Assembly (NCBI GenBank): GCA_027048495.1
Contig: JALTWS010000016.1
Location: 1-61,719, forward strand
Origin: Candidatus Azambacteria bacterium
Lineage (GTDB): Bacteria > Patescibacteriota > Minisyncoccia > GWC2-36-17 > M10-OD1-4
DNA: 61,719 nt
Reading direction: 5' to 3'
Translations under genes and position numbers: made by a program
The notes under the pieces: generated by a model
What the model saw: only the letters and a program-made list of their open reading frames with translations
What the model was told of the DNA's origin: nothing
The model's database searches: none
Part shown: one piece after another, positions 15,973 to 35,551 of the stretch
How positions within the stretch are numbered: the stretch's first letter is position 1
Layout: each line of letters opens with the position of its first letter

Positions 15973-17209
15973 AAATAAAAAGCTGTTTGTTTTATTTTCT
16001 ATTTTTTTATGTTTGTTTTTGTTTGGTTTTGCTTATGGGGCAAAAGCTTCTTTGATGGAGGAGTTAAAAAGAAAAATAAAAGAAAATACAGAAAAAATAA
16101 AGCAGATAGAAAAAGAAGCAAAGAAGTTTGAAAGTAAACTCCATGAGGCAAGAGATAAAAAAAACACCCTCAAAAGCCAAGTAAAAGAACTTGAGCATGA
16201 AATATACCATCTTAATTTGGAAATACAAAAAACCCAAGCAGAAATTACAAAAACTAACCTTAACATAGATTTGCTAAAAGAGGAGATAAAAGAAAAAGAA
16301 GAACAAATAGTTCAATTGAAAGCTCAAATGGCGTATGTTTTACAGCTTTTATATGAGGCGGACAAAACTTCATTTTTGTCTATTTTGGTTTCTGCAAAAG
16401 ACTTTTCAGATGCTTTAAATCAGAAAGAATATTTAAGAAATTTAGAAAAACAGATGTCTTTATCTTTGGCAAAAGTTAATTTGCTTAAAAAAGATCTTGA
16501 AAGCAACAAAAAAGAACAAGAGAAAAGAGCAAAAGAGCTTTATCTTTTAAATGAAAAGCTGGCAGACCAGCAAGAGATAACAAACAACAAAAAAATAGAA
16601 AAAAAACAACTGTTAAAAGAAACAAAAAATCAGGAATATATATATCAAAAAACTCTAGCAGAGCTTAACAGGCAAAGGAAAAATATAGAAAAAGAAACAG
16701 GAGAGCTGGAAAAAAAGCTCAAAGAAGCAATAAACAAATCAAAACTTCCAAAAGGGAAAGGGATATTAAAATGGCCTTTGGATAACATAAGAATAACCCA
16801 AGGATATGGTATGACTCCGTTTGCAAAAACAGGGGCTTATGGAGGAAATATTCATAATGGGCTTGATATTGCAGGCAGAACAGGAACTCCTGTTAAGTCA
16901 GCAGGAGATGGAGAAATAATAGGAGTTGGCAACAATGGAAGGTATGCTTATGGTAAATGGATAGCTATAAAGCATAACAACGGACTTGTGACTTTGTATG
17001 CGCATCTTTCTTTGCAGAAAGTTAAAAAAGGGCAAAAAGTAAAAGCAGGAGAGTTAATAGGGTATGTGGGAGCAACCGGATATGTTACTGGTCCGCATCT
17101 TCACTTTACTGTTTATGCGCCAGATTCTTTTGATCTGTATCAAAGTTCAAAAATAAGCTGGCTTTGGATACCGGTTGGCGCTCCGCTTAATCCTTTGGAT
17201 TATTTATAA
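15950..17209 (+). CDS. M23/LytM-family peptidoglycan endopeptidase with long N-terminal coiled coil (EnvC-like architecture)
   Basis: Signal/TM segment, about 250 aa of heptad-rich sequence, and a C-terminal HNGLDIAG..GDGEII..HLHFTVY with the catalytic His residues retained. Confidence 0.88.
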   Translation: MRYMPYYKNKKLFVLFSIFLCLFLFGFAYGAKASLMEELKRKIKENTEKIKQIEKEAKKFESKLHEARDKKNTLKSQVKELEHEIYHLNLEIQKTQAEITKTNLNIDLLKEEIKEKEEQIVQLKAQMAYVLQLLYEADKTSFLSILVSAKDFSDALNQKEYLRNLEKQMSLSLAKVNLLKKDLESNKKEQEKRAKELYLLNEKLADQQEITNNKKIEKKQLLKETKNQEYIYQKTLAELNRQRKNIEKETGELEKKLKEAINKSKLPKGKGILKWPLDNIRITQGYGMTPFAKTGAYGGNIHNGLDIAGRTGTPVKSAGDGEIIGVGNNGRYAYGKWIAIKHNNGLVTLYAHLSLQKVKKGQKVKAGELIGYVGATGYVTGPHLHFTVYAPDSFDLYQSSKISWLWIPVGAPLNPLDYL

Positions 17210-17218
17210 AAAAACAAT

Positions 17219-17923
17219 ATGAAAGCAATAATTTTAGCAGGAGGCAGGGGAACAAGGCTTCCAGAAAGTGCAAAAGACATACCAAAAGCATTGGTTAAAG
17301 TAAATGAACTGCCTATAGTTGAACATCAGCTGAATCTTCTTAAAATGCATAATATTTCAGATGTGATATTTTCTTTAGGATTTAGAAGCGATCAGCTTAT
17401 TGATTACATAAAAGGGAAGTACGAGTATGTAGTGGAAAGCTATCCTTTGGGGACTGGAGGAGCTATAAAATATGCTTCAAGCAGTTTATCAGAGCCATTT
17501 TTAGTTTTGAACGGAGATATACTTTCTGACATAAATTTTTCTGATTTTATATCTTCTTTTGAAAAAAGATCAAGCAAACTTTTGGGTTCTGTTGCTGTTG
17601 TTTGGATGGAGAATTGCTCAGATTATGGGCTGGTAAAACATAAAAAAACTGAAGAAGGATTTTTTATTGTAGAGGAGTTTTTAGAAAAGCCAAACACTCC
17701 AATGTCTGGCCATATAAATGCAGGAGTTTATATTCTAACCCCTGAAGCGTTAAGCCATAAAAAAGAAGAAATATTTTCAATTGAAAAAGATGTTTTTCCA
17801 GAACTTTCAAAAAAAGGAAAGATATCTGCATATTTTCATAGTGGAAATTGGATGGATGTTGGAACCGAAGATAGGCTAAAAACAGCAAGAAGTATTAATT
17901 GGCTTTTTTATGGAGATAAATAA
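17219..17923 (+). CDS. sugar-phosphate nucleotidyltransferase
   Basis: MKAIILAGGRGTRLPE G-loop and GGAIKY in a 234-aa NTP_transferase fold. Sugar specificity cannot be called. Confidence 0.8.
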   Translation: MKAIILAGGRGTRLPESAKDIPKALVKVNELPIVEHQLNLLKMHNISDVIFSLGFRSDQLIDYIKGKYEYVVESYPLGTGGAIKYASSSLSEPFLVLNGDILSDINFSDFISSFEKRSSKLLGSVAVVWMENCSDYGLVKHKKTEEGFFIVEEFLEKPNTPMSGHINAGVYILTPEALSHKKEEIFSIEKDVFPELSKKGKISAYFHSGNWMDVGTEDRLKTARSINWLFYGDK

Positions 17924-18506
17924 GATTATAAATTTTGTAAAATTGACCCACAAGTTTCAAAAAGTCCACAGAATGATACTTGTACCGGGAAAAACCAGAA
18001 GAGAAAACGATATGGAGCACAGCTATCAGCTTGCTATGCTTGCTTGGTATATAAAAGATGCTGGAAATTTAAATTTGGACACAGATTTGCTTATAAAATA
18101 CGCTTTGGTACACGACCTTGTTGAGGTTTATGCAGGAGACACTTATTTTTACACAAAAGACAAAGATCACGCAAGCTCTAAAGAAAAAAGAGAAAAAGAT
18201 GCGCAAAAAAAGCTAAAAAGAAATTTTCCGGAATTTAAGGAACTTCACAGCTTAATTGAAAAATATGAACAAAAAAACGACAAGGAAAGCAAATTTATAT
18301 ACGCGCTTGATAAAATAATTCCGATTTTAAATATTTATATAGACAAAGGACGTTCATGGAAAAAAGATAAAGTTACTTTTGATATGCTGGTTGAAAAAAA
18401 GACAAAAAAAGTAAAAGCTTCCAAAGAGGTTGAGGATATTTTTAAGCAAATTTTAAGCATTTTAAGAAAAAATAAAAAAGAGCTGTTTTATCAGCTATCT
18501 GACTAA
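17910..18506 (+). CDS. HD-domain phosphohydrolase (YfbR-like 5'-nucleotidase family)
   Basis: MEHSYQLA ... VHDLVEVYAGD. It overlaps the previous gene by 14 nt. Confidence 0.75.
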   Translation: MEINKIINFVKLTHKFQKVHRMILVPGKTRRENDMEHSYQLAMLAWYIKDAGNLNLDTDLLIKYALVHDLVEVYAGDTYFYTKDKDHASSKEKREKDAQKKLKRNFPEFKELHSLIEKYEQKNDKESKFIYALDKIIPILNIYIDKGRSWKKDKVTFDMLVEKKTKKVKASKEVEDIFKQILSILRKNKKELFYQLSD

Positions 18507-18550
18507 GTATGTCGCAAAAGATATATTGTGCGACATACTATATCTTTCTT
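18506..18550 (+). terminator. hairpin after the HD gene
   Basis: AGTATGTCGCA (18506-18516) pairs with TGCGACATACT (18529-18539), followed by T-rich sequence. Confidence 0.5.
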
Positions 18551-18693
18551 CCCTCTGGGTTTTTCTGCGCAAAAATAGCTTTTTGCAGAAAAATTAAAAG
18601 GTTGATTTTCAATTTTTATAGATAATTAAATTCAGAAAAACAATTAAAGATGATAAATAAAGATTTTGTTTTAAACAAACAGCAATTTTTTAT

Positions 18694-19182
18694 TTAAAAT
18701 TGAGTTTGTGCATAATGTTTGCAAATATATTTAAAATGCTTTTCTGATACTGGTTGAATTGAAAGCCTTGAGCCTTTTTTAAAAAGTTCCATGCCTTTTA
18801 GATTCTTGTCTTCTTTTAGTAAATTTAGAGGTATTATATTTTTGAATTTTTTTACAAAGCACACATCTGGCATAAACCATCTTGGATTATCAGGAGATGA
18901 TTTTTCATCATAATATTTGCTTTTTTTATCAAAAGCAAAATAGTCTGGATAAGCTTCTTTGCATATTTTTATAATCCCTGCTATTCCAGATGGATTTGCA
19001 TTTGAATGGTAAAAAAAACCAAGGTCTCCTTTTTTCATTGATTTTATAAAATTTCTGGCTTGATAATTTCTTACTCCTTCCCAGCATGCCTTTTTGTCTT
19101 TTTTCAGATCATCTATAGAATAAACTTCAGGTTCTGATTTTAATAGCCAGTAATTTATTTTTGACATTTTTTGCATTTGCAT
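18694..19182 (-). CDS. EVE (PUA-like) domain protein
   Basis: YWLLKSEPEVYSIDDL..WEGVRNYQARNF..GDLGFFYHS..GIAGI. The likely true start is ATG 19167 (MSKINYW). It overlaps the 3' end of the SET gene. Confidence 0.85.
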   Translation of the reverse strand: MQMQKMSKINYWLLKSEPEVYSIDDLKKDKKACWEGVRNYQARNFIKSMKKGDLGFFYHSNANPSGIAGIIKICKEAYPDYFAFDKKSKYYDEKSSPDNPRWFMPDVCFVKKFKNIIPLNLLKEDKNLKGMELFKKGSRLSIQPVSEKHFKYICKHYAQTQF

Positions 19183-19529
19183 CCTTTTGGTTTTATATAT
19201 TCATCAAAATATTCTTTTCCATAATCGTAAGTTATCTCCTCTCCTGCTTTTATGTTTTTTGTAGCATACAAAAGCACCCTTCCCTTTTTTATTATAACCT
19301 CTGCATTTGGACAGCAAGAATGATTTGCATATCTTGCTTTGTTGCTTCTTGGACTGCCGTCTATAACTTTTCTTGAATTTACTTCAAAAAGGTATCTTCC
19401 TCCTTTTTTATCTGCTTCTTTTTGGGTTAGTATTTTCCCCGTGTATTCTATTATGAACTCCCCTTTTTTGATTGGCTCTTTTGCAAAGAGTCCGAGCCCC
19501 GCGCTTGACCTTCTAACTGTTGTTTTCAT
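19155..19529 (-). CDS. SET-domain protein lysine methyltransferase
   Basis: GLGLFA, GEFIIEYTGKIL, RYANHSCCPNAE (NHSCxPN), EEITYDYG, and a post-SET-like CKCKKC. Confidence 0.88.
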   Translation of the reverse strand: MKTTVRRSSAGLGLFAKEPIKKGEFIIEYTGKILTQKEADKKGGRYLFEVNSRKVIDGSPRSNKARYANHSCCPNAEVIIKKGRVLLYATKNIKAGEEITYDYGKEYFDEYIKPKGCKCKKCQK

Positions 19530-19586
19530 TTATTTTTATATTTATTTCATATTTAATTGCAAAAGAGACTATTATAAACAAAAATT

Positions 19587-19991
19587 TTATTTAAAACAAG
19601 TTTTTGATCTTCTGTAGCCTGCCTTTTTTGCGTCTTGCTCTGTTTGAAAATAGATTTTATTTTCTTCTTTTATTCTGTTTTTACAGGATATTTTATAGTA
19701 AGTTTTTCCGTTTTTGCTTGCAACAAATAAAAATTGCTCTTTGGTGTTGTTTTTTAAAGCTTGTTGTTCTTTTGTTATGTTTTCTATTTTTGTGCTGTAA
19801 GCTGATATTGATGCTAAAATTTGCTCATTTTGCCCTATTTTTAAGCTTTTTTCTGAAAAAACAAGGTTTTGTCCATATATGTTTCCTAAGCCAAAAAACA
19901 AGGCTGAAATGACAAAAAACTTAAAAAACAAAACAAGCTTGTCTTTATTTTTTATTGCAAGATTTTTTAAGTTGTTTATTTCTTCTATCAT
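19587..19991 (-). CDS. membrane-anchored hypothetical protein with degenerate Ada-like C-terminal motif
   Basis: N-terminal TM segment. The C-terminal YYKISCKNRIKEENKIYFQTEQDAKKAGYRRSKTC resembles the YH..C....I...N..F.S..EA..AGY.PC..C module, but only 2 of the usual Cys/His ligands remain. Confidence 0.45.
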   Translation of the reverse strand: MIEEINNLKNLAIKNKDKLVLFFKFFVISALFFGLGNIYGQNLVFSEKSLKIGQNEQILASISAYSTKIENITKEQQALKNNTKEQFLFVASKNGKTYYKISCKNRIKEENKIYFQTEQDAKKAGYRRSKTCFK

Positions 19992-20099
19992 TTAAATTTT
20001 AGATTCTTAAAGGAGAAAAGATGTAAAATGTAAAATTTTATTTTTAGCTTTAAAATGGGTTTTGGCTTAATTTTTTTGGTAGAAAGTTAAATTTTAATG

Positions 20100-27762: not shown

Positions 27763-28717
27763 GTCTTTTTAAAGCTAGTTCTATTTGTTTATCTAAAAAT
27801 TCTGGAAACGACATACCCATTGCCCTTGCTTCTTTTGGACAGAGGCTGTTTTTTGTTGCTCCGGGTATTGTATTTATTTCCAGAAAGTAAAGTTTTCCGT
27901 TTTTTGCCAAAATAAAATCAGATCTTGTCAGGCCATCGCATTTTAAAAGCTTATGAACTTTTTTTGCCAAGGATTTTACTTTTTGTGCTGTTTTTTTGCT
28001 TATATTTGCAGGACAGATCTCTTCTGTTTTTGCTGAATATTTTGCCTTTTTGGTAAAAAACTCTTCTTTTGTTTTTATTTGGACAGGAGGCATTACTAGT
28101 ATATTTTTTTGGTCTGAATTTCCCAAAACGCCACAAGTAAGCTCTATTCCTTCTATGAACTCTTGAATTAAAAAATCATTTTTTTTATTTTTTTCCAGAG
28201 CTTTTTTAAGTTCTGCTTTTGAATTTATCAGAAAAACTCCAATGCTTGAACCAGAAGAATTTGGCTTTAAAATACAGGGAAATTTTGCATTTGTGATGTT
28301 TTTTATTTCTTTTGGAGCTAATATTTTGTTGTTTTTTGCTATATTCAGGGTCATTTTTTTGTCCATTGCTATTGCGCTTGAAATTGAAGATGAACCGGTA
28401 AATGGAATGTTTAGAGTTTCTAAAACAGCTTGAATTTTTCCGTCTTCTCCAAACTCGCCATGAAGCGCCAAAAATGCCAAATCTTTGTTATTTATGTTTT
28501 TTAAAACAGCGCCTATTATCTTTTTTTTATCATTTGGTAAGATAGATAAAACAATATTATATTTTTCTTTATTTAGGTTTTTTGCTATCTCTTTTCCTGA
28601 AAGCAAAGATATATCTCTTTCGTTTGAATATCCTCCGCAAAAAACAACAATATTTAGCTTTTTTTTAGTTTTCATTTTTAAATGTGTTGCATAAAGTTTA
28701 AAGCGTGAGCTTGCCAA
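27743..28717 (-). CDS. ddl: D-alanine--D-alanine ligase
   Basis: ALHGEFGEDGKIQAVLETLNIPFTGSSS, AMDKKMT and LEINTIPG (ATP-grasp fold). The start may be ATG 28675 (MKTKKKLNIVVFCGG). Confidence 0.9.
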   Translation of the reverse strand: MASSRFKLYATHLKMKTKKKLNIVVFCGGYSNERDISLLSGKEIAKNLNKEKYNIVLSILPNDKKKIIGAVLKNINNKDLAFLALHGEFGEDGKIQAVLETLNIPFTGSSSISSAIAMDKKMTLNIAKNNKILAPKEIKNITNAKFPCILKPNSSGSSIGVFLINSKAELKKALEKNKKNDFLIQEFIEGIELTCGVLGNSDQKNILVMPPVQIKTKEEFFTKKAKYSAKTEEICPANISKKTAQKVKSLAKKVHKLLKCDGLTRSDFILAKNGKLYFLEINTIPGATKNSLCPKEARAMGMSFPEFLDKQIELALKRHEKNRN

Positions 28718-29621
28718 ATTTACCTTTATAAAAATCTTGAATTGCCAGCATTATCATCTTAGCCGAAGTTCTTCGTTTTGGCAAAAAAATGTATTTGACT
28801 ATCTGTTTTAAATAAAGATAAAAACTCCAAATATATATCCCAAAAAGGATAGGCTTGGGAGCGTTTCTTTTGGAAAGCAAAAGCGCGTTTCTGACATGAT
28901 AGTAGTGTATTTTTGGATTTGTCATTGCTTTTTTTGTGGATTGGGAGACTTTATGCCAAATATGCGATGAAGGAACATAAAAAAGTTCAAATCCTGCTTT
29001 TTTAGCTCGCAAGCTATAGTCTGTATCTTCATAATACATAAAAAATTCTTCGTTTAGCTTCCCTATTTTTTGCACAACATCTTTTTTAATTAACATTGCG
29101 CATCCAGAAACATACTCTGTTTTTTTTATTTTTGTCTCGCTTTTATTTTTGTCTTTTTTCATATACTGCATTGGCTTTCCTCCTCCTGCCCAAGAAAATT
29201 TGCAACTGGCATGCCAAATAACATCTGGTTTGTCATAAAAATATATCTTTGGAGCAAAAAGCCCTCCTTTTGGATTTTTTTGTGATGCTTCTATGAGTTT
29301 GTCTAAAAAGTCAGGAGCAACTTTTGTGTCGTTGTTTAAAAGCAAAATATAATCTGCTTGGTTTTTGATTGCATAATCTATTCCGATGTTGTTTCCCCCA
29401 GCAAATCCGGTATTTTCTTTTTGGGCAAATACTTTAATTTCAGGAAAGTATTCTTGTATTTTTAAAACAAATTCTTTTTGATTTTTCGATGCATTATCTA
29501 CAAGCAAAATTTTGTAATTTTTGTATGTTATTTTTTTTAAAGAATCTAAGCACTCAAGAGTATCTTTTTCTCCATTGTAATTGACAAGTATTATAAATAT
29601 TTTTGGATGGTTTGTTTTCAT
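28698..29621 (-). CDS. family 2 glycosyltransferase (rhamnosyltransferase-like)
   Basis: IFIILVNYNGEKDT, LLVDNAS, LLNNDT and YYEDTDY. Confidence 0.85.
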   Translation of the reverse strand: MKTNHPKIFIILVNYNGEKDTLECLDSLKKITYKNYKILLVDNASKNQKEFVLKIQEYFPEIKVFAQKENTGFAGGNNIGIDYAIKNQADYILLLNNDTKVAPDFLDKLIEASQKNPKGGLFAPKIYFYDKPDVIWHASCKFSWAGGGKPMQYMKKDKNKSETKIKKTEYVSGCAMLIKKDVVQKIGKLNEEFFMYYEDTDYSLRAKKAGFELFYVPSSHIWHKVSQSTKKAMTNPKIHYYHVRNALLLSKRNAPKPILFGIYIWSFYLYLKQIVKYIFLPKRRTSAKMIMLAIQDFYKGKFGKLTL

Positions 29622-30907
29622 TAAAATATAATTTTGCCTTTGGGATATTTTTTAAAATCTGTTTTTGGAATTTCAATAACATCTGACATAGAAAAGCCAA
29701 GCTTTTTGAATGTATTGTATGTTTTTATCCATCTTGCTTTCCCTTGCTGTAAAAGATATATTTTATAATCCCCTTCTTTTTTTATTAAAATATTTTCATT
29801 TTTTATATCATAATCCAAAGGGTCTCCTGTTTTGTACTCTTCAACTTCCCTTTTGGACAAAACCAAAACATCAGACATTGAATAGCCCATTTTTTTAAAA
29901 GCAAGGTATGATGTTATATGTCTTTTTTTTCCATTTTCAATTTTGTATATTTGAGGCGCATTTTTTTCTTTTATTAAGGCTCCATTTTTTAAGTTGTTAT
30001 GCCTTTTGTATGGAAATGCATTGTAGATAAAATCTGTTGCTTCTAAAAATATTTTTGGAGAAAAAACGGGCACTTTAAATCCATCTTTTAAAATAAAAAA
30101 TTCATTTTCCTTTTGGTATACCAAATTTTCATACCTTTGTTTCCACTTATTTGCTTCTTTTCTTAAAATGTTCATATTAAGCACCCCTGGGTCATCATTA
30201 TCTTTTTCTATGTCTTTATGTCCTAATACAGAAGGACCAACAAAAACTTGGGAAAATGATCCTCCATATTCTGATATACATTCTCCTTTATATTTTGGAT
30301 TTGTCCAGACAGGAGTTTTTAAATCCATTTTTTCGGGGTCTATGCCATTTGCCGCAGAGAGCCAACCAACAAGCTTATACAAAGAATTTAAAGCCTCTTG
30401 TGTTGGCTTTTGACGGTCAAAATCTCCAATGAGCGCTATTCCTACAGAGCCAACATTAAAATTTCTGCACAAGCGGTTATCATAGGCGTGAGCGCCTTTT
30501 TTTCCATTTCCTCCTTTTCTTCCTTCATATATGTTGCCTTTTTTGTCTATTATGTAGTTGTATCCTATATCCTCCCAGCCTCTTGTAATTGAATGGTCTT
30601 TGTTTATTCTTTGGATTGTTGTTAGCGGATCTGTATATTGGTTACAGCATCCAGTGTCGTGGATTATTATCCTTGTGACTTTAAAATATTCCGGTATGTT
30701 AAGGCTGTTTTCTTTTTTAAACTTTTCTATCGTTTTTTGCGGTATATGGATATGCTTTTTTTGTTCTTGTCGGTAAAAGTATTTGCTTGTATCTATATGC
30801 ACATTTTCCCAAACAGACCTTTTTTGTATTTTTGGCAAATCAAAATAAGCGCTTGTAAAAAGCGGGAAAAATAAAAATACAAATGTAAAAAATAATCCTC
30901 TTTTCAT
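29621..30907 (-). CDS. N-acetylmuramoyl-L-alanine amidase (Amidase_2/PGRP-type) with two C-terminal ~45-aa repeats
   Basis: IIIHDTG, GWEDIGYNYIIDKKGNIYEGR, GAHAY..NFNVGSVGIALIGDF and GHKD. The C-terminal repeats are IYKIENGKKRHITSYLAFKKMGYSMSDV and IYLLQQGKARWIKTYNTFKKLGFSMSDV. Confidence 0.85.
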   Translation of the reverse strand: MKRGLFFTFVFLFFPLFTSAYFDLPKIQKRSVWENVHIDTSKYFYRQEQKKHIHIPQKTIEKFKKENSLNIPEYFKVTRIIIHDTGCCNQYTDPLTTIQRINKDHSITRGWEDIGYNYIIDKKGNIYEGRKGGNGKKGAHAYDNRLCRNFNVGSVGIALIGDFDRQKPTQEALNSLYKLVGWLSAANGIDPEKMDLKTPVWTNPKYKGECISEYGGSFSQVFVGPSVLGHKDIEKDNDDPGVLNMNILRKEANKWKQRYENLVYQKENEFFILKDGFKVPVFSPKIFLEATDFIYNAFPYKRHNNLKNGALIKEKNAPQIYKIENGKKRHITSYLAFKKMGYSMSDVLVLSKREVEEYKTGDPLDYDIKNENILIKKEGDYKIYLLQQGKARWIKTYNTFKKLGFSMSDVIEIPKTDFKKYPKGKIIF

Positions 30908-31608
30908 TTTTTGATTTTATAAAAAAACAATGAGACAGGAAAAACAAAAACAGCATTTATAATTCTTTTAAACCTTTTTTTTGGCTCTTTTAAAAATCTC
31001 CAAAGCCACTCAAGATGAATTTTTCTTAAAAACAAAGGAGCCCTTTTTATTTTTCCTGACAAGATATCAAATGCACCTCCCACTCCCATAGCTACTTTTA
31101 TTGTTGGAAATTTGTTTAAATTTTCACTTATCCAAATTTCTTGTTTTGGCGCTCCCAAAGCAACAAAAATAATATCTGGGTTTGAATTTTTTATTAAATT
31201 ATAGCATGAAGACAAATCTTCAGAAACTTCGCATATATTTATGTTAAAAAACATATTTTTTAGAGCGTCTTTTGTTTTTTGCGCAACGCCATTTTTCCCT
31301 CCTAGCAAAAATACTTTTTTATTTTCTTTTTCTGCCAGCTTACAAATTGCAAGCATAAAATCTATACCCGGAATATTTTTTTTAATTTTTGAGAAAAAAA
31401 CCAAACCAGACCCGTCTGGTATTAAAAGATCTGCATTGTTTAAAATTTCTTTGAAGTTTTTGTCTTTTTTTGCTTTAAGCAGTATCTCTGGGTTTGGAGT
31501 AAATATTTTAATTTGTTTTTTTGAAAAAAAGGAATTTTTAACAATTTTTATTGCATCTTCAAAAGATATATTGTCTAATTTAACCCCAAAAATATCTATT
31601 TTTTCCAT
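30904..31608 (-). CDS. WecB/TagA/CpsF-family glycosyltransferase
   Basis: IFGVKLDN, TPNPEIL, ADLLIPDGSGLV, LGGKNGVAQK and ALGAPKQEIW. ATG 31608 (MEKIDIF) is preferred over 31668, which would abut the divergent priA start. Confidence 0.85.
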   Translation of the reverse strand: MEKIDIFGVKLDNISFEDAIKIVKNSFFSKKQIKIFTPNPEILLKAKKDKNFKEILNNADLLIPDGSGLVFFSKIKKNIPGIDFMLAICKLAEKENKKVFLLGGKNGVAQKTKDALKNMFFNINICEVSEDLSSCYNLIKNSNPDIIFVALGAPKQEIWISENLNKFPTIKVAMGVGGAFDILSGKIKRAPLFLRKIHLEWLWRFLKEPKKRFKRIINAVFVFPVSLFFYKIKK

Positions 31609-31671
31609 ATAAAAGATTATATCACAAACAAAAAACTGCCAAAATCTGTTTATTTTAGTATAATACATATT

Positions 31672-33558
31672 ATGTATATATTAGATGTTATTCTTACAAT
31701 TAAAACTCCCAAAAACCTTTCTGGAGTTTTGAGCTATTTTTCCCCAGATCCTTTAAAAAAGGGGGCTTTTGTTAGAGTTTCTGTTGGACATATTAAAGTA
31801 AACGCCATGGTTTTGGACTGTCGCCTTGTTGAGTCAGAAAAAATGTTTATAAAAAAATCAGCGTTTCAGATAAAGGCCATTGACAGAATAATATCAGATA
31901 CACCTGTTTTTTCAGATAAGCAATTTGACCTGTTTTTTTGGTTTTTAAATTTTTATATGGCAGATATAGGAATTTGCGCAAAAACATTTTTGCCAAATTA
32001 CTTGGTAAACAAAAAAACTCCTATTAAAGTAAAAGAAGCTAAAAAAACACAACAAACAAAAAATGGAGTTTTTTCTGAGTTTTTGGTTGTTGGAAGCAAC
32101 AGGTTAAAATTTTATAAAAAAGAAATCCAAAAATGCTTAAATAAAAAAAAGCAGGTTTTATTTTTGGTGCCAGATTTAGTTTTATTAAAAAAATATGAAA
32201 AAGAGCTTAAAGATTTTTATCCAGAAATTTTAACTTCCAGTATTTCTCCAAAAAAATATTTTAGTTTATGGGAGAAAGTAAGAACCAAAGAAAAAAATTT
32301 TATACTCTCAACAAGGGGAGGAGTTTTTTTGGATTTTTCTGAACTTGGACTTGTTATTGTAGATAAAGAAGAGGATAGCTCTTATAAATCTCAAGATATG
32401 CTTCCTTACTATCAAACAAAAGATGTAGCAAAAAAAATTGCAGAGCTTTCTTTTGCTAAAATTATTTATGGAGCAAATGTGCCAACTGTTGAGAGCTATT
32501 ACCTTGTAAAAGACAAACTAGTAGAAAAAGACAAAAAAAAGCATTATTTTTTAACAGTAGACATGAGAAATGAGATTTATGGAGGAAACTATTCCATACT
32601 TTCGTATTATTTGCAAGGTAATTTAGAAGATATTTTAAGAAAAAACAGACAGGCAATTTTGTTTATTTCAAGAAGAGGATCTGAAACATTTGTTTTTTGC
32701 AGAGATTGCGGCTGGGTTGAAAAGTGCAAAAATTGCGAGGCCTCTTTAATACATCACAAAAAAATCGGGCTTTTATGCCATTACTGTGGATTTAAAAAAG
32801 AAGCTCCTGTTGTCTGTCCGCAATGCCATGGACATAAAATAAAATATTTTGGAGCAGGAACCCAAAAAGCAAAAGATGAAATTTTAAAATTGTTTCCTAA
32901 TGCAAAAGTTAAGATTCTTGATTCTGAAATAACTCCAAATTTAAAAGATCAAGAGAAAATTGTAAAGGATTTTAATCTTAAAAAAATAGATATTCTTGTC
33001 GGAACCCAGCTTATGTTTAAGTGGGGCTTTAAGTTAAAAGCAGATTTATCTGCTGTTTTATCTTTTGATAATATTCTCCATTTGCCAGATTTTAAATCCC
33101 AAGAAAGAGTTTTTAATATAGCAAAAAACCTGTCTTTTATATCAAAACAACAAGAAATGATTTTACAGACATACACAAAAGACCATTATTTAATATCAGA
33201 CATTTCAAAAAAAATAGATTATGACGTATTTTTCTCAGAAGAAATAAAATTAAGAGAAAAATTTTGCTACCCACCATTTTCTTTTTTGGTTAAGATAATT
33301 TACAAAAACAAAAGTATTGTCCAAGGAGAAAACGAAGTGCAAAAAATAAAAGAGAAAATAGTCAATTTAAAAATAAAGGAAATTGAAATTTTAGGACCTG
33401 CTTTGGCATACATACCAAAAATAAAAAATTTTTATATTTGGCATATAATAATCAAAATAAAAGATAAAAAACAAGAGTTAAAGATAAAAAAAGAAATAAC
33501 AAAAGCTTTATCGGAATTTGAGTATGTGGCTGATATAAACCCAGAAAGTCTCTTGTAA
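31672..33558 (+). CDS. priA: primosomal protein N' (PriA) homolog with degenerate helicase motifs
   Basis: The PriA Cys-rich insertion CRDCGWVEKCKNCEASLIHHKKIGLLCHYCGFKKEAPVVCPQCHG is followed by FGAGTQK. DSSYK and LVGTQ are conserved. Walker A, DEEH, SAT and GRAGR are all replaced (see findings). Confidence 0.85.
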   Translation: MYILDVILTIKTPKNLSGVLSYFSPDPLKKGAFVRVSVGHIKVNAMVLDCRLVESEKMFIKKSAFQIKAIDRIISDTPVFSDKQFDLFFWFLNFYMADIGICAKTFLPNYLVNKKTPIKVKEAKKTQQTKNGVFSEFLVVGSNRLKFYKKEIQKCLNKKKQVLFLVPDLVLLKKYEKELKDFYPEILTSSISPKKYFSLWEKVRTKEKNFILSTRGGVFLDFSELGLVIVDKEEDSSYKSQDMLPYYQTKDVAKKIAELSFAKIIYGANVPTVESYYLVKDKLVEKDKKKHYFLTVDMRNEIYGGNYSILSYYLQGNLEDILRKNRQAILFISRRGSETFVFCRDCGWVEKCKNCEASLIHHKKIGLLCHYCGFKKEAPVVCPQCHGHKIKYFGAGTQKAKDEILKLFPNAKVKILDSEITPNLKDQEKIVKDFNLKKIDILVGTQLMFKWGFKLKADLSAVLSFDNILHLPDFKSQERVFNIAKNLSFISKQQEMILQTYTKDHYLISDISKKIDYDVFFSEEIKLREKFCYPPFSFLVKIIYKNKSIVQGENEVQKIKEKIVNLKIKEIEILGPALAYIPKIKNFYIWHIIIKIKDKKQELKIKKEITKALSEFEYVADINPESLL

Positions 33559-33561
33559 ACA

Positions 33562-33601
33562 AAACAAAAAAAAGGGAGAATCTTATTTTATGGCTCTCCC
33601 T
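33562..33601 (-). terminator. intrinsic terminator overlapping the stop of the 119-aa gene
   Basis: On the minus strand, AGGGAGA..TCTCCCT is followed by T8 (the plus-strand A-run 33562-33573). Confidence 0.6.
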
Positions 33602-33942
33602 TTGGATGCCTTAACTCTCTTTGAGAAGGCAATGCAAAATACATATAATTTTTCTGCTGTTTTTTTGTTTTTTTTGTTTAATTTAAAGAAATCTTGAAAA
33701 ATACCAGCAAGTTTTTTCAAGCTCGGTTTTTTCCAAACAGCTTTCAAAGACAGAAGTATATCTTCTTTTACTTTTTCTTCAATTTCTAAGCTGTCAATTT
33801 TGCAAAATTCACAAACCAATTTTTCATTAAAAGATAAGTTTGTTTGGTTTTTGTTTATAAAATCATAAAGAACAACAGATATTTTGCAAATTTGAAAGGA
33901 TATGTCAGGATAATTTTTCAATGTCAAGATTTTTGCTTTCAA
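33583..33942 (-). CDS. hypothetical protein (119 aa)
   Basis: Long ORF with its own terminator and no recognisable motif. Confidence 0.5.
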   Translation of the reverse strand: MKAKILTLKNYPDISFQICKISVVLYDFINKNQTNLSFNEKLVCEFCKIDSLEIEEKVKEDILLSLKAVWKKPSLKKLAGIFQDFFKLNKKNKKTAEKLYVFCIAFSKRVKASKGRAIK

Positions 33943-33967: not shown

Positions 33968-33996
33968 TTGAATTGATTGATATTATTTATTATAAT
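33968..33996 (+). promoter_or_regulatory. possible promoter giving a leaderless def mRNA (TTGAAT-17 nt-TATAAT)
   Basis: TTGAAT at 33968-33973 and TATAAT at 33991-33996. ATG 34004 lies 7 nt after the -10, and no Shine-Dalgarno sequence is present. Confidence 0.35.
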
Positions 33997-34003
33997 TCTC
34001 ATT

Positions 34004-34477
34004 ATGTCAATAATAAGTATACAAAAAGGGAAAGAAAATAAAATATTAAGAGCTGTATCAGAAGAGGTAAAAGATATAAAATCTCCGGAAATTCAGGAGT
34101 TTATTTCCGATATGAAAATGACACTGGCAGCAACCCCAAACGGAGTTGGGCTTGCCGCTCCGCAAGTTGGCAAAAATATAAGAATATTTGTGGCATCTGA
34201 TAATCTTGGACTTAACCAAACCGTATTTATTAATCCGAAAATTACCGAGATTTCTGAAAAAATGATTTTAAAAGACGAGGGTTGCCTTTCTCTGCCTGAA
34301 TTTTACGGAAAGATAAAAAGAGCGGAATGGGTAAAGGCGGAAGCTTACAACGAAAACGGCAGGAAATTTAAAATAAAAGCAAAGGGACTTGTCTCTCAGC
34401 TTATTCAGCATGAAATAGATCATCTTGACGGAATCTTATTTGTAGATAAAGCGGAAGAAGTTGAGGTGGTTAAGTAA
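34004..34477 (+). CDS. def: peptide deformylase
   Basis: GVGLAAPQVG, EGCLSLP and QHEIDHLDG. ATG 34004 is preferred to TTG 33977. Confidence 0.93.
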   Translation: MSIISIQKGKENKILRAVSEEVKDIKSPEIQEFISDMKMTLAATPNGVGLAAPQVGKNIRIFVASDNLGLNQTVFINPKITEISEKMILKDEGCLSLPEFYGKIKRAEWVKAEAYNENGRKFKIKAKGLVSQLIQHEIDHLDGILFVDKAEEVEVVK

Positions 34478-34490
34478 AATTTATAAAATC

Positions 34491-34588
34491 TTCTTTTTCA
34501 AAAAACCGTTTACGACGTGTTAACGGAAGCGCAGCGAAGCCAAAGGCGTAGCGTGAGCGCACAGAGTAAACGGTTTTTTGAAAAAGAA
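34491..34588. repeat. 23-bp perfect inverted repeat enclosing a 52-nt GC-rich core, between def and fmt
   Basis: TTCTTTTTCAAAAAACCGTTTAC (34491-34513) pairs with GTAAACGGTTTTTTGAAAAAGAA (34566-34588). The core contains AGCGAAGCC and GTGAGCGCACAG, both shared with other islands. Confidence 0.9.
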
Positions 34589-34615
34589 AAGAATTTTCCG
34601 AGATATTCTTTAAAT

Positions 34616-35551
34616 ATGTACAAAATAGTTTTTTTTGGAACTCCAAAAATAGCGGAAGATACTTTAAAAAAACTTATAGAATCAGAAAAATATAAGCCGT
34701 GTTTAGTTATCACTCAAAAAGATAAGCCAGTGGGAAGAAAAAAGGTTTTGACTTCCCCGCCGGTTAAGGTGTTAGCAGAAAAATACGGTATTGAGGTTTT
34801 TCAGCCAGAAAGTATAAAAGAAAAAGAGGTAGTAGAAAAAATAAAAAATATAAATCCGGATCTAATAGTAGTTTTTGCCTATGGACATATTATTCCAAAA
34901 GAAATTATTGATATTCCGAAATTTGGAGTTTTAAATATTCATACTTCTATCCTTCCAAAATACAGAGGGCCCTCTCCTATTCAATATGCAATTTTAAATG
35001 GAGATAAAAAAACAGGCGTAACATTAATACAAATAGATGAACAGCTTGATCATGGGCCGATTTTAGCTCAAAAAGAAGTAGAAATTTCAGAAAAAGAAAC
35101 ATCAGAAACCCTACACGACAAACTTGCAGAAGCGGGAGCCAATCTTTTGCTTGAAATTTTACCTTTATATTTTGCCGGAAAAATAAAAGCCAAAGAGCAA
35201 GAACACAAAAAAGCGACATTTACAAAATTGCTCAGGCGAGAAGACGGAGAGATTTTCCCCAAAAAAGAGACAGCAAAAGAGATAGAAAGAAAATTCAGGG
35301 CATTTCACCCCTGGCCGGGAATATTTTTAAATTTAAAACTAAAAGATAAAAATCTAAAATTAAAAATAATAAACTGCTCAATAGCAGAATGTAAAGATAA
35401 AAAAGATGTGTTGTATTTAGATAAAGAAAATAAACTTATTTTAAAAACCAAAGAAGGCTGTCTTTGGTTAAAAGAAGTTCAGCCGGAAGGAAAACAAAAA
35501 ATGTCGGGAGGTGCTTTTTGGCAGGGGTATAAAGATAGAATTATTTTATAA
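34616..35551 (+). CDS. fmt: methionyl-tRNA formyltransferase
   Basis: MYKIVFFGTP, NIHTSILPKYRGPSPIQYAI.NGD and a C-terminal Fmt domain. The ORF-track N-terminus (34517) runs through the repeat element and is rejected. Confidence 0.92.
   Translation: MYKIVFFGTPKIAEDTLKKLIESEKYKPCLVITQKDKPVGRKKVLTSPPVKVLAEKYGIEVFQPESIKEKEVVEKIKNINPDLIVVFAYGHIIPKEIIDIPKFGVLNIHTSILPKYRGPSPIQYAILNGDKKTGVTLIQIDEQLDHGPILAQKEVEISEKETSETLHDKLAEAGANLLLEILPLYFAGKIKAKEQEHKKATFTKLLRREDGEIFPKKETAKEIERKFRAFHPWPGIFLNLKLKDKNLKLKIINCSIAECKDKKDVLYLDKENKLILKTKEGCLWLKEVQPEGKQKMSGGAFWQGYKDRIIL

Follow-up and report, generated by a model that had tools for sequence, protein, structure and literature searches.

We analysed a 61,719-nucleotide stretch of DNA from a Candidatus Azambacteria bacterium (JALTWS010000016.1; hereafter the window), which is contig 16 of an 803-kb, 46-contig Patescibacteria genome with a completeness of 98.6%. 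The G+C content of the window is ~30%. Our subject is its gene priA, whose open reading frame (ORF) starts with ATG, encodes 628 amino acids and has zero internal stops, so that its description as full-length and uninterrupted in an initial annotation made from the sequence alone was accurate. That annotation also proposed that the product is a conserved pseudo-helicase, a homolog of the replication restart protein PriA that would act without ATP-driven unwinding. We found that the protein is a PriA whose catalytic residues are lost and whose fold is kept, that the same loss runs through the PriA genes of its class, and that the gene is under purifying selection.

Profile and structure searches identified the protein as PriA. 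It scored 364.2 bits against the priA model TIGR00595 (cut-off 230.35), and it matched the Pfam models of the 3' DNA-binding domain (PF17764, PriA_3primeBD, residues 6–108; 41 bits versus a cut-off of 22.7) and of the C-terminal domain (PF18074, PriA_C, residues 535–624; 47.9 bits versus 26.9). The zinc-ribbon model Zn_ribbon_PriA reached 22.9 bits, slightly below its cut-off of 26. The scores for Helicase_C and ResIII, 22.2 and 13.1 bits respectively, were both sub-threshold, and the protein gave no DEAD-family Pfam match at E ≤ 1. A phmmer search against all PDB sequences returned PriA chains only, from Escherichia coli and Klebsiella pneumoniae (E about 1e-50 to 4e-51). The AlphaFold2 model, built on 66 relatives, had a pLDDT of 92.7 and a pTM of 0.92, and in a Foldseek search of PDB with this model ranks 1–9 were all PriA chains (TMq 0.75–0.82). 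The top TMq of 0.82 was a tie between 4nl4 (K. pneumoniae PriA, full-length, with ADP) and 6dcr, an E. coli construct with the winged-helix domain deleted.

The domains and motifs of the protein are listed in Table 1. All eight cysteines (pairs C343/346, C352/355, C369/372 and C382/385) align with cysteines of E. coli PriA, and they were invariant across the 66 relatives aligned. The winged-helix domain is absent, which left ~100 gap columns in comparison with long canonical PriAs. Because a linker of only 23 residues joins the 3' DNA-binding domain to lobe 1, and because 6dcr was among the best structural matches, we concluded that the protein is a PriA that naturally lacks this domain.

Table 1. 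Features of priA and of its neighbourhood in the window (positions in nucleotides; aa, amino acid residues of PriA).
Feature	Position	Strand	aa	Basis or remark
priA	31672..33558	+		628 codons plus stop; sole priA of the genome
3' DNA-binding domain	31672..32001	+	1–110	PF17764
Short linker replacing the winged-helix domain	32002..32070	+	111–133	Gap columns versus canonical PriAs; structural match 6dcr
RecA-like lobe 1, fold kept, catalytic residues lost	32071..32541	+	134–290	AlphaFold2 model; conservation
Degenerate Walker A, VVGSNRLKFY	32086..32115	+	139–148	HMMER, MAFFT
Degenerate motif II, DKEEDSSYK	32362..32388	+	231–239	HMMER, MAFFT, conservation
Degenerate motif III, YGANVP	32467..32484	+	266–271	HMMER, MAFFT
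Cysteine-rich region, eight Cys for two Zn sites	32686..32847	+	339–392	Alignment; Cys conservation in relatives
Motif V remnant, ILVGTQLMFKWGF	32992..33030	+	441–453	HMMER, MAFFT, conservation
Place of motif VI, NIAKNLSFISKQ, no arginine	33115..33150	+	482–493	HMMER, MAFFT, conservation
C-terminal domain	33172..33555	+	501–628	PF18074; conservation
def, peptide deformylase, downstream of priA	33977..34477	+		PF01327, 157.5 bits
fmt, methionyl-tRNA formyltransferase, downstream of priA	34517..35551	+		PF00551 plus PF02911
119-aa ORF between priA and def	33583..33942	-		No Pfam match at E ≤ 0.001
Cell-envelope cluster upstream of priA	28698..31668	-		Family 2 glycosyltransferase; 428-aa protein with an Amidase_2 domain; WecG/TagA-type glycosyltransferase

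Helicase motifs were called by aligning the protein with HMMER (phmmer) to chains 6dcr and 8fak of E. coli PriA, and from two MAFFT alignments. At Walker A, VTGSGKTEVY of E. coli pairs with VVGSNRLKFY (V139–Y148), so that GSGKT has become GSNRL; R144 occupies the column of the Walker lysine, and the P-loop is shorter by 3–4 residues deleted ahead of R144. Motif II pairs DEEHDSSY with DKEEDSSY (D231–Y238), with the catalytic glutamate changed to lysine and the histidine to glutamate, and motif III pairs GSATP with GANVP (G267–P271). The initial annotation had arrived at these three pairings by eye, and both programs reproduced them. For motif VI the programs disagreed on the register: MAFFT placed QVAGRAGR on NLSFISKQ (486–493), as had been proposed, and HMMER placed it on NIAKNLSF (482–489). 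In either register no arginine lies between residues 482 and 495; both motif VI arginines are missing. Motif V pairs ILIGTQ with ILVGTQ, and here G-T-Q (444–446) is kept and KGxD is lost. The claim that every motif is degenerate was therefore slightly too strong: motifs I, II, III and VI are lost, and remnants are left at P167 (motif Ia), T214-R215 (motif Ib), P271 (motif III) and G-T-Q 444–446, most of which are conserved clade-wide. The blocks that had been described as retained, namely DSSYK, LVGTQ and four CxxC pairs, were all found in the alignment to E. coli PriA.

We rejected the explanation that intact motifs are present in the protein at shifted positions. HMMER and MAFFT concurred on motifs I, II and III, and so the motif loss held in a rigorous alignment. 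Across relatives, motifs were called in one reference alignment, and a regular expression served as control. The P-loop pattern [AG]x4GK[ST] occurred in 1/90 genomes of the class, at an unrelated position, versus 55/89 PriA-like ORFs of the out-of-class phylum sample (both samples are described below).

Relatives of the protein were collected at three depths. The closest ones in a collection of 5.8 billion proteins, which carry the database labels Candidatus Azambacteria, Parcubacteria group or Patescibacteria, were just 50–54% identical and were degenerate in the same motifs. From 1.84 billion cluster representatives (50% identity), we aligned 144 of the best 150 hits, leaving out six that were under 550 aa. 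GK[ST] was missing at the Walker A column in 95 of the 144, with arginine there in 50 of those 95; it was present in 49, of which 48 were also canonical in motifs II and VI. Lastly, we searched a sample of 151 genomes from the window's class, each at least 90% complete, with profile A2 (E ≤ 1e-8). Matches were obtained in 95 genomes, five of them only weak and Mfd- or RecG-like, leaving 90 with a PriA-like gene. All 90 loci were fetched and their ORFs placed in the reference alignment; because these are sampled genomes, relatives among them are not independent. GK[ST] was found in 0/90. The lysine column held arginine in 59 genomes, lysine in 2 (without the glycine or threonine) and some other residue in 16; the remaining 13 had a gap. 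The full set of eight cysteines was retained in 80/90, and a single intact ORF no shorter than 540 aa was present in 83/90, with four others cut by contig ends.

A phylum sample comprised 151 genomes, of which 98 matched at E ≤ 1e-15; 87 out-of-class loci were fetched and eight further matching genomes were left out. Fully canonical motifs were seen at 54 of these loci and degenerate ones at 26, six loci did not cover the column, and one (G252; G, L, C and f numbers are our own labels for genomes, loci, contigs and families) was cut by a contig end. A phylogeny of 183 rows was computed with FastTree after the motif columns had been taken out. The tree needed six changes of state, one of them the G252 artefact, and four were forced by well-supported branches. 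The large degenerate clade (111 rows) had a support of only 53. Isolated degenerate rows were G259, G225, G170 and G166, and G259 and G166 each share their family with canonical relatives. These sequences suggest that the motor was lost in one old event plus a few younger ones, a count that is rough because the tree was quick and had long branches. We concluded that the degenerate motifs are a lineage trait and not decay.

Several relatives showed further changes of architecture. In family f81 (genomes of 0.9–1.6 Mb; G220, G243, G197, G264, G301), the PriA-like gene is divided between two separate ORFs: the N-terminal one (~340–350 aa) has the 3' DNA-binding domain and lobe 1, and the C-terminal one (~316–390 aa) has the cysteine-rich region with lobe 2 and the C-terminal domain. 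Both halves are degenerate, and they lie on different contigs in G220 (L290, L291), G243 (L288, L289) and G197. Family f109 (~0.8 Mb; G204 L286, G227 L282, G250, G270, G289) has only a PriA-like ORF of ~470–500 aa that covers model positions ~12–283 (3' DNA-binding domain plus lobe 1) and looks like a truncated derivative. In five genomes of family f24 (G037, G130, G155, G103, G074) and in G039, the four middle cysteines are lost (pattern CC....CC), and because of this loss these PriAs probably lack one of the two zinc sites. The CC....CC proteins are under strong purifying selection (dN/dS, the ratio of nonsynonymous to synonymous substitution rates, of 0.06–0.07 among G037, G130 and G155).

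What do these changes mean for the use of ATP? Because the P-loop is shortened and its lysine and threonine are replaced by arginine and leucine, because the motif II glutamate is replaced by lysine, and because both arginine fingers of motif VI are gone, the Azambacteria PriA is predicted to be unable to bind or hydrolyse ATP and to have no helicase activity. The PriA of Deinococcus radiodurans shares the lysine-to-arginine substitution, and the erosion in the Azambacteria protein goes much further; loss of the ATPase is therefore a safe inference. We considered it extremely improbable that the protein is still an ATPase or translocase, with a non-canonical nucleotide site in which Arg144 replaces the Walker lysine. 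The conservation of arginine at the lysine column, seen in the class genomes and in 70% of the full-length degenerate rows, speaks for such a site in that it suggests that the position still matters. However, excerpts of two papers, on which our statements about the E. coli and D. radiodurans proteins rest here and below, report that the K230R change alone abolishes the ATPase of E. coli PriA (PMC5778457), and that the ATPase of D. radiodurans PriA, which has the same arginine, was not measurable (PMC4504706). Also gone or unconserved are the P-loop glycines and threonine, the Q motif, the motif II glutamate and histidine, motif III and the two arginine fingers.

We estimated selection on degenerate PriAs from same-genus pairs. 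By the NG86 method, which is crude and for which dS was saturated in many pairs, dN/dS was 0.06 for G037–G130 (dS 0.31), 0.07 for G037–G155 (dS 0.34) and for G130–G155 (dS 0.42), 0.20 for G043–G076 (dS 0.78) and 0.12 for G133–G045 (dS 1.05); within the window's order it was 0.12 for G004–G017 (dS 0.85) and 0.11 for G014–G004 (dS 1.04). Pairs that were saturated or had a dS above ~1.5 were of little information, and G107, whose translation failed a check, was left out. Values were similar in all the regions compared, namely the 3' DNA-binding domain, the first lobe, the second lobe taken together with the cysteine-rich region, and the C-terminal domain (G101–G072 was not part of this region-wise comparison). 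Because purifying selection was seen, the gene does not behave as a decaying one.

Conservation was measured as the mean frequency of the top residue per column in 91 degenerate and 109 canonical rows. The values for degenerate versus canonical rows were 0.41 versus 0.38 in the 3' DNA-binding domain, 0.38 versus 0.41 in the C-terminal domain, 0.46 versus 0.55 in the cysteine-rich region, 0.37 versus 0.59 in lobe 1, and 0.43 versus 0.64 in the second part of lobe 2. That is, the 3' DNA-binding domain and the C-terminal domain are as conserved in degenerate as in canonical PriAs, and conservation was lost in the RecA-like lobes only. Constraint was lost from the columns of the Q motif and of motifs I, Ia, Ib (in part), II, III, V and VI. 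Constraints specific to the clade have newly arisen at R144 (where canonical rows have 100% lysine), at T214, and at L20, F23 and K57 of the 3' DNA-binding domain. In an N-terminal alignment that is weak (5.8 bits), Y22 of that domain pairs with Tyr18 of the 3'-end pocket in E. coli PriA; Y22 is conserved in 95% of degenerate and 98% of canonical PriAs.

The remainder of the genome was searched for other replication genes. A second, canonical priA was not found in this 98.6% complete genome, so that PriA is single-copy. The other matches of helicase superfamily 2 (SF2) were an Mfd-like protein, UvrB and a 709-aa RecG above its family cut-off; all were weaker hits only and were rejected as a second priA. 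The Mfd-like protein (G000:C19, L002 769..2778, minus strand; 669 aa) covers positions 285–820 of the 907 in TIGR00580 with a score of 798.9, just below the cut-off of 800, and it seems to be without the N-terminal part of canonical Mfd. The genome encodes DnaB with an intact GKT and an SSB (single-stranded DNA-binding protein) with the tail ...EDIPF. Of 61 class genomes sampled for them, only 19 had DciA-like ORFs (88–117 aa), which scored above the cut-off in 12 cases. A profile (A4) made from 11 DciA-like ORFs of the class had a single match in the genome studied here (E 3.9e-4), a small ORF directly downstream of infB; we take this ORF to be rbfA, given its N-terminal sequence and position, and rejected it as DciA. 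The DnaD model gave one sub-threshold match (17.4 bits), to a 236-aa protein that looks membrane-bound and like a member of the VIT1/CCC1 family; we rejected it as DnaD.

Around priA, the start of the gene is only 3 nt from the start of the divergent WecG/TagA-type glycosyltransferase gene. The order after priA is the 119-aa ORF on the opposite strand, then def and fmt. The true start of fmt is probably the internal ATG at MYKIVFFG. The order priA-def-fmt also occurs in Bacillus subtilis. GC skew in the window changes sign near 18 kb (about 16000–20000), falling from about +0.2 to negative values, and the cumulative skew peaks there; this switch may be a change of gene strand only, or a replication landmark. 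Among the sequencing runs listed, no RNA run contains the stretch, and three DNA runs of one study do, one of which may be its source.

Taken together, the motif loss, the purifying selection that clearly acts on the gene despite its fast evolution, the single copy of priA, and the conservation of the 3' DNA-binding and C-terminal domains support the proposal of a conserved pseudo-helicase without ATP-driven unwinding. We consider it probable that the product of this gene is a naturally occurring PriA pseudohelicase, maintained by selection, that would serve as a platform at forks and in restart without the use of ATP. A number of results weigh against this reading, and they bear on two rival explanations.

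The first set concerns the retention of the gene. No PriA was detected in 61/151 genomes of the class; 'not found' here means that there was no match to profile A2 and is not proof of absence. The PriA-negative genomes include single-contig ones, whole families (0/5 twice), and G001, which belongs to the window's own family and is 97% complete in 6 contigs. The gene is therefore dispensable in many lineages, and it seems that restart commonly proceeds in the class with no PriA or by means of an unrecognised substitute. Internal stops or split ORFs were found in 3/90 copies (G040, G136, G107), and the evolution of PriA is much faster than that of the genome's DnaB (nearest relatives 54% versus 87% identical). 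The dN/dS values also carry the weaknesses of their method. The PriA-negative genomes, the disrupted copies and the fast evolution, together with the lineages that lack four of the eight cysteines or have a split or truncated gene, would also fit a gene that is heading for loss, nearly neutral since its ATPase was lost and intact only through slow decay. We judged this very unlikely, since dN/dS was 0.06–0.20 in every domain, the dead lobes included, and since an intact single ORF persists in 83/90 class genomes despite divergence to ~30% identity. The fold is also confidently predicted, and conservation of the 3' DNA-binding and C-terminal domains is undiminished.

The second set concerns the partners of PriA. 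With Pfam models we detected none of the known loaders or restart partners in the genome: no PriB-like second SSB fold, PriC or DnaT, no DnaC/IstB above the cut-off, no DciA match at E ≤ 0.01, and no credible DnaD. In the literature searched we also found no biochemical test of the Azambacteria PriA or its relatives. A protein with another job than restart could account for the missing partners, for the new clade-specific constraints listed above, and for a gene that is dispensable in ~40% of the class genomes; the PriA scaffold would then be a chassis for a zinc-dependent binder of DNA structures in recombination, or for a regulator or partner of another enzyme. Such a change of job is unlikely in our view. 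The parts that were kept (3'-end-binding domain, cysteine-rich region and C-terminal domain) are those used in restart, the priA-def-fmt neighbourhood is retained, and the ATPase-dead PriA of D. radiodurans keeps fork binding and contact with DnaB (PMC4504706).

If the protein is a pseudohelicase of restart, how might it work? We infer that an abandoned fork or D-loop would be recognised via the pocket of the 3' DNA-binding domain, together with the DNA-binding face of the lobes and the cysteine-rich region, and that contact with the C-terminal tail of SSB would help. Such passive marking of the fork would be followed by reloading of DnaB, recruited either directly or via an adaptor. We propose this sequence because what has been kept includes the 3' DNA-binding domain, the zinc region and the C-terminal domain, as well as the parts of the SSB site, which according to excerpts of a review sits between lobe 1, the 3' DNA-binding domain and the C-terminal domain. 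Fork remodelling could be provided by the RecG of the same genome. The proposed route would correspond to the helicase-independent PriA branch of E. coli priA300 (K230R) and of D. radiodurans PriA.

A wider reading joins these points, and we offer it as a possible but rather doubtful one. Loss of the motor would be recurrent and selected in Patescibacteria, with a single ancient event that covers the whole class and several younger ones, converging on the lysine-to-arginine change of Deinococcus-Thermus, often as an acidic-arginine pair. The arginine would fill the empty nucleotide pocket and lock both lobes in one state, and the resulting landing pad, constitutive and ATP-free, would reload DnaB directly, without PriB, DnaT, DnaD, DnaC or DciA. 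If true, this would be a minimal two-protein restart system, and the marking of forks, not their unwinding, would be the core ancestral job of PriA.

PriA pseudohelicases as a kind are already known from Deinococcus; the present case differs in its phylum, the extent of the motif loss, the absence of the winged helix, the scale, and the patchy complete loss of the gene. The excerpts of a 2018 review name Deinococcus as the only exception (PMC5778457), and we found no prior report of an ATPase-dead PriA in Patescibacteria or the candidate phyla radiation in the open-access literature, outside which most subscription journals lie. The sampled class would be a second exception, far larger and more diverse, in which PriA is ATPase-dead (90/151) or not found (61/151). 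Its sister classes mostly keep the motor (54/87), which offers a natural experiment on the functions of PriA that are indispensable. Selection on the 3' DNA-binding domain, the zinc region and the C-terminal domain, but not on the motor, supports primosome nucleation over unwinding as the core role. The automatic label 'replication restart helicase' is functionally misleading for these genes. One prediction of the finding is that DnaB is recruited directly, free of adaptors, in organisms with minimal replication toolkits.

Among the closest known counterparts is the pseudohelicase PriA of D. radiodurans (Lopper, Boone and Morrow 2015, PMC4504706). According to the excerpts of that report, Deinococcus-Thermus PriAs naturally have arginine at the Walker A lysine and a degenerate Walker B, as a lineage-wide trait, and motifs I and II of the D. 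radiodurans protein are named as poor matches. The purified protein unwound 4% of substrate versus 56% for E. coli PriA, its DNA binding was near-normal (dissociation constants of 215 nM for single-stranded DNA and 108 nM for a fork), and it interacts with DnaB. The Azambacteria PriA is similarly retained, has the same substitution of the Walker lysine with motifs I and II off consensus, and likewise belongs to a lineage-wide trait, here of a Patescibacteria class. In contrast to the D. radiodurans protein, it comes from a different phylum, has also lost the Q motif, motifs Ia, III and VI and part of motif V, and is short (628 aa) with no winged-helix domain.

The second counterpart is E. coli PriA K230R (priA300), which in the excerpts of PMC5778457 has no ATPase, helicase or translocase activity and yet is active in restart, with near wild-type behaviour; helicase activity is a requirement of the PriA-PriC pathway and of phage Mu, though not of the PriA-PriB pathway. 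The same lysine-to-arginine change is present in the Azambacteria PriA. K230R, however, is a laboratory point mutant that is otherwise canonical and has PriB, DnaT and DnaC as partners, whereas in the Azambacteria protein the whole catalytic site is eroded and those three partners were not found in the genome.

Compared with canonical PriA (4nl4, 6dgd, 8fak; 6dcr), the order of domains is the same: 3' DNA-binding domain, lobe 1, lobe 2 with the inserted eight-cysteine region, and C-terminal domain. The Azambacteria PriA differs in its lack of functional ATPase motifs and of the winged helix, the latter a resemblance to the engineered 6dcr. It also resembles the canonical short PriAs of other Patescibacteria classes (~650–690 aa), which are similar in length, have the same 3' DNA-binding domain, cysteine-rich region and C-terminal domain, and apparently are also without the winged-helix domain. 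Unlike the Azambacteria protein, however, these short PriAs keep GxGKT, DExH and GRxGR at 54 of the 87 out-of-class loci.

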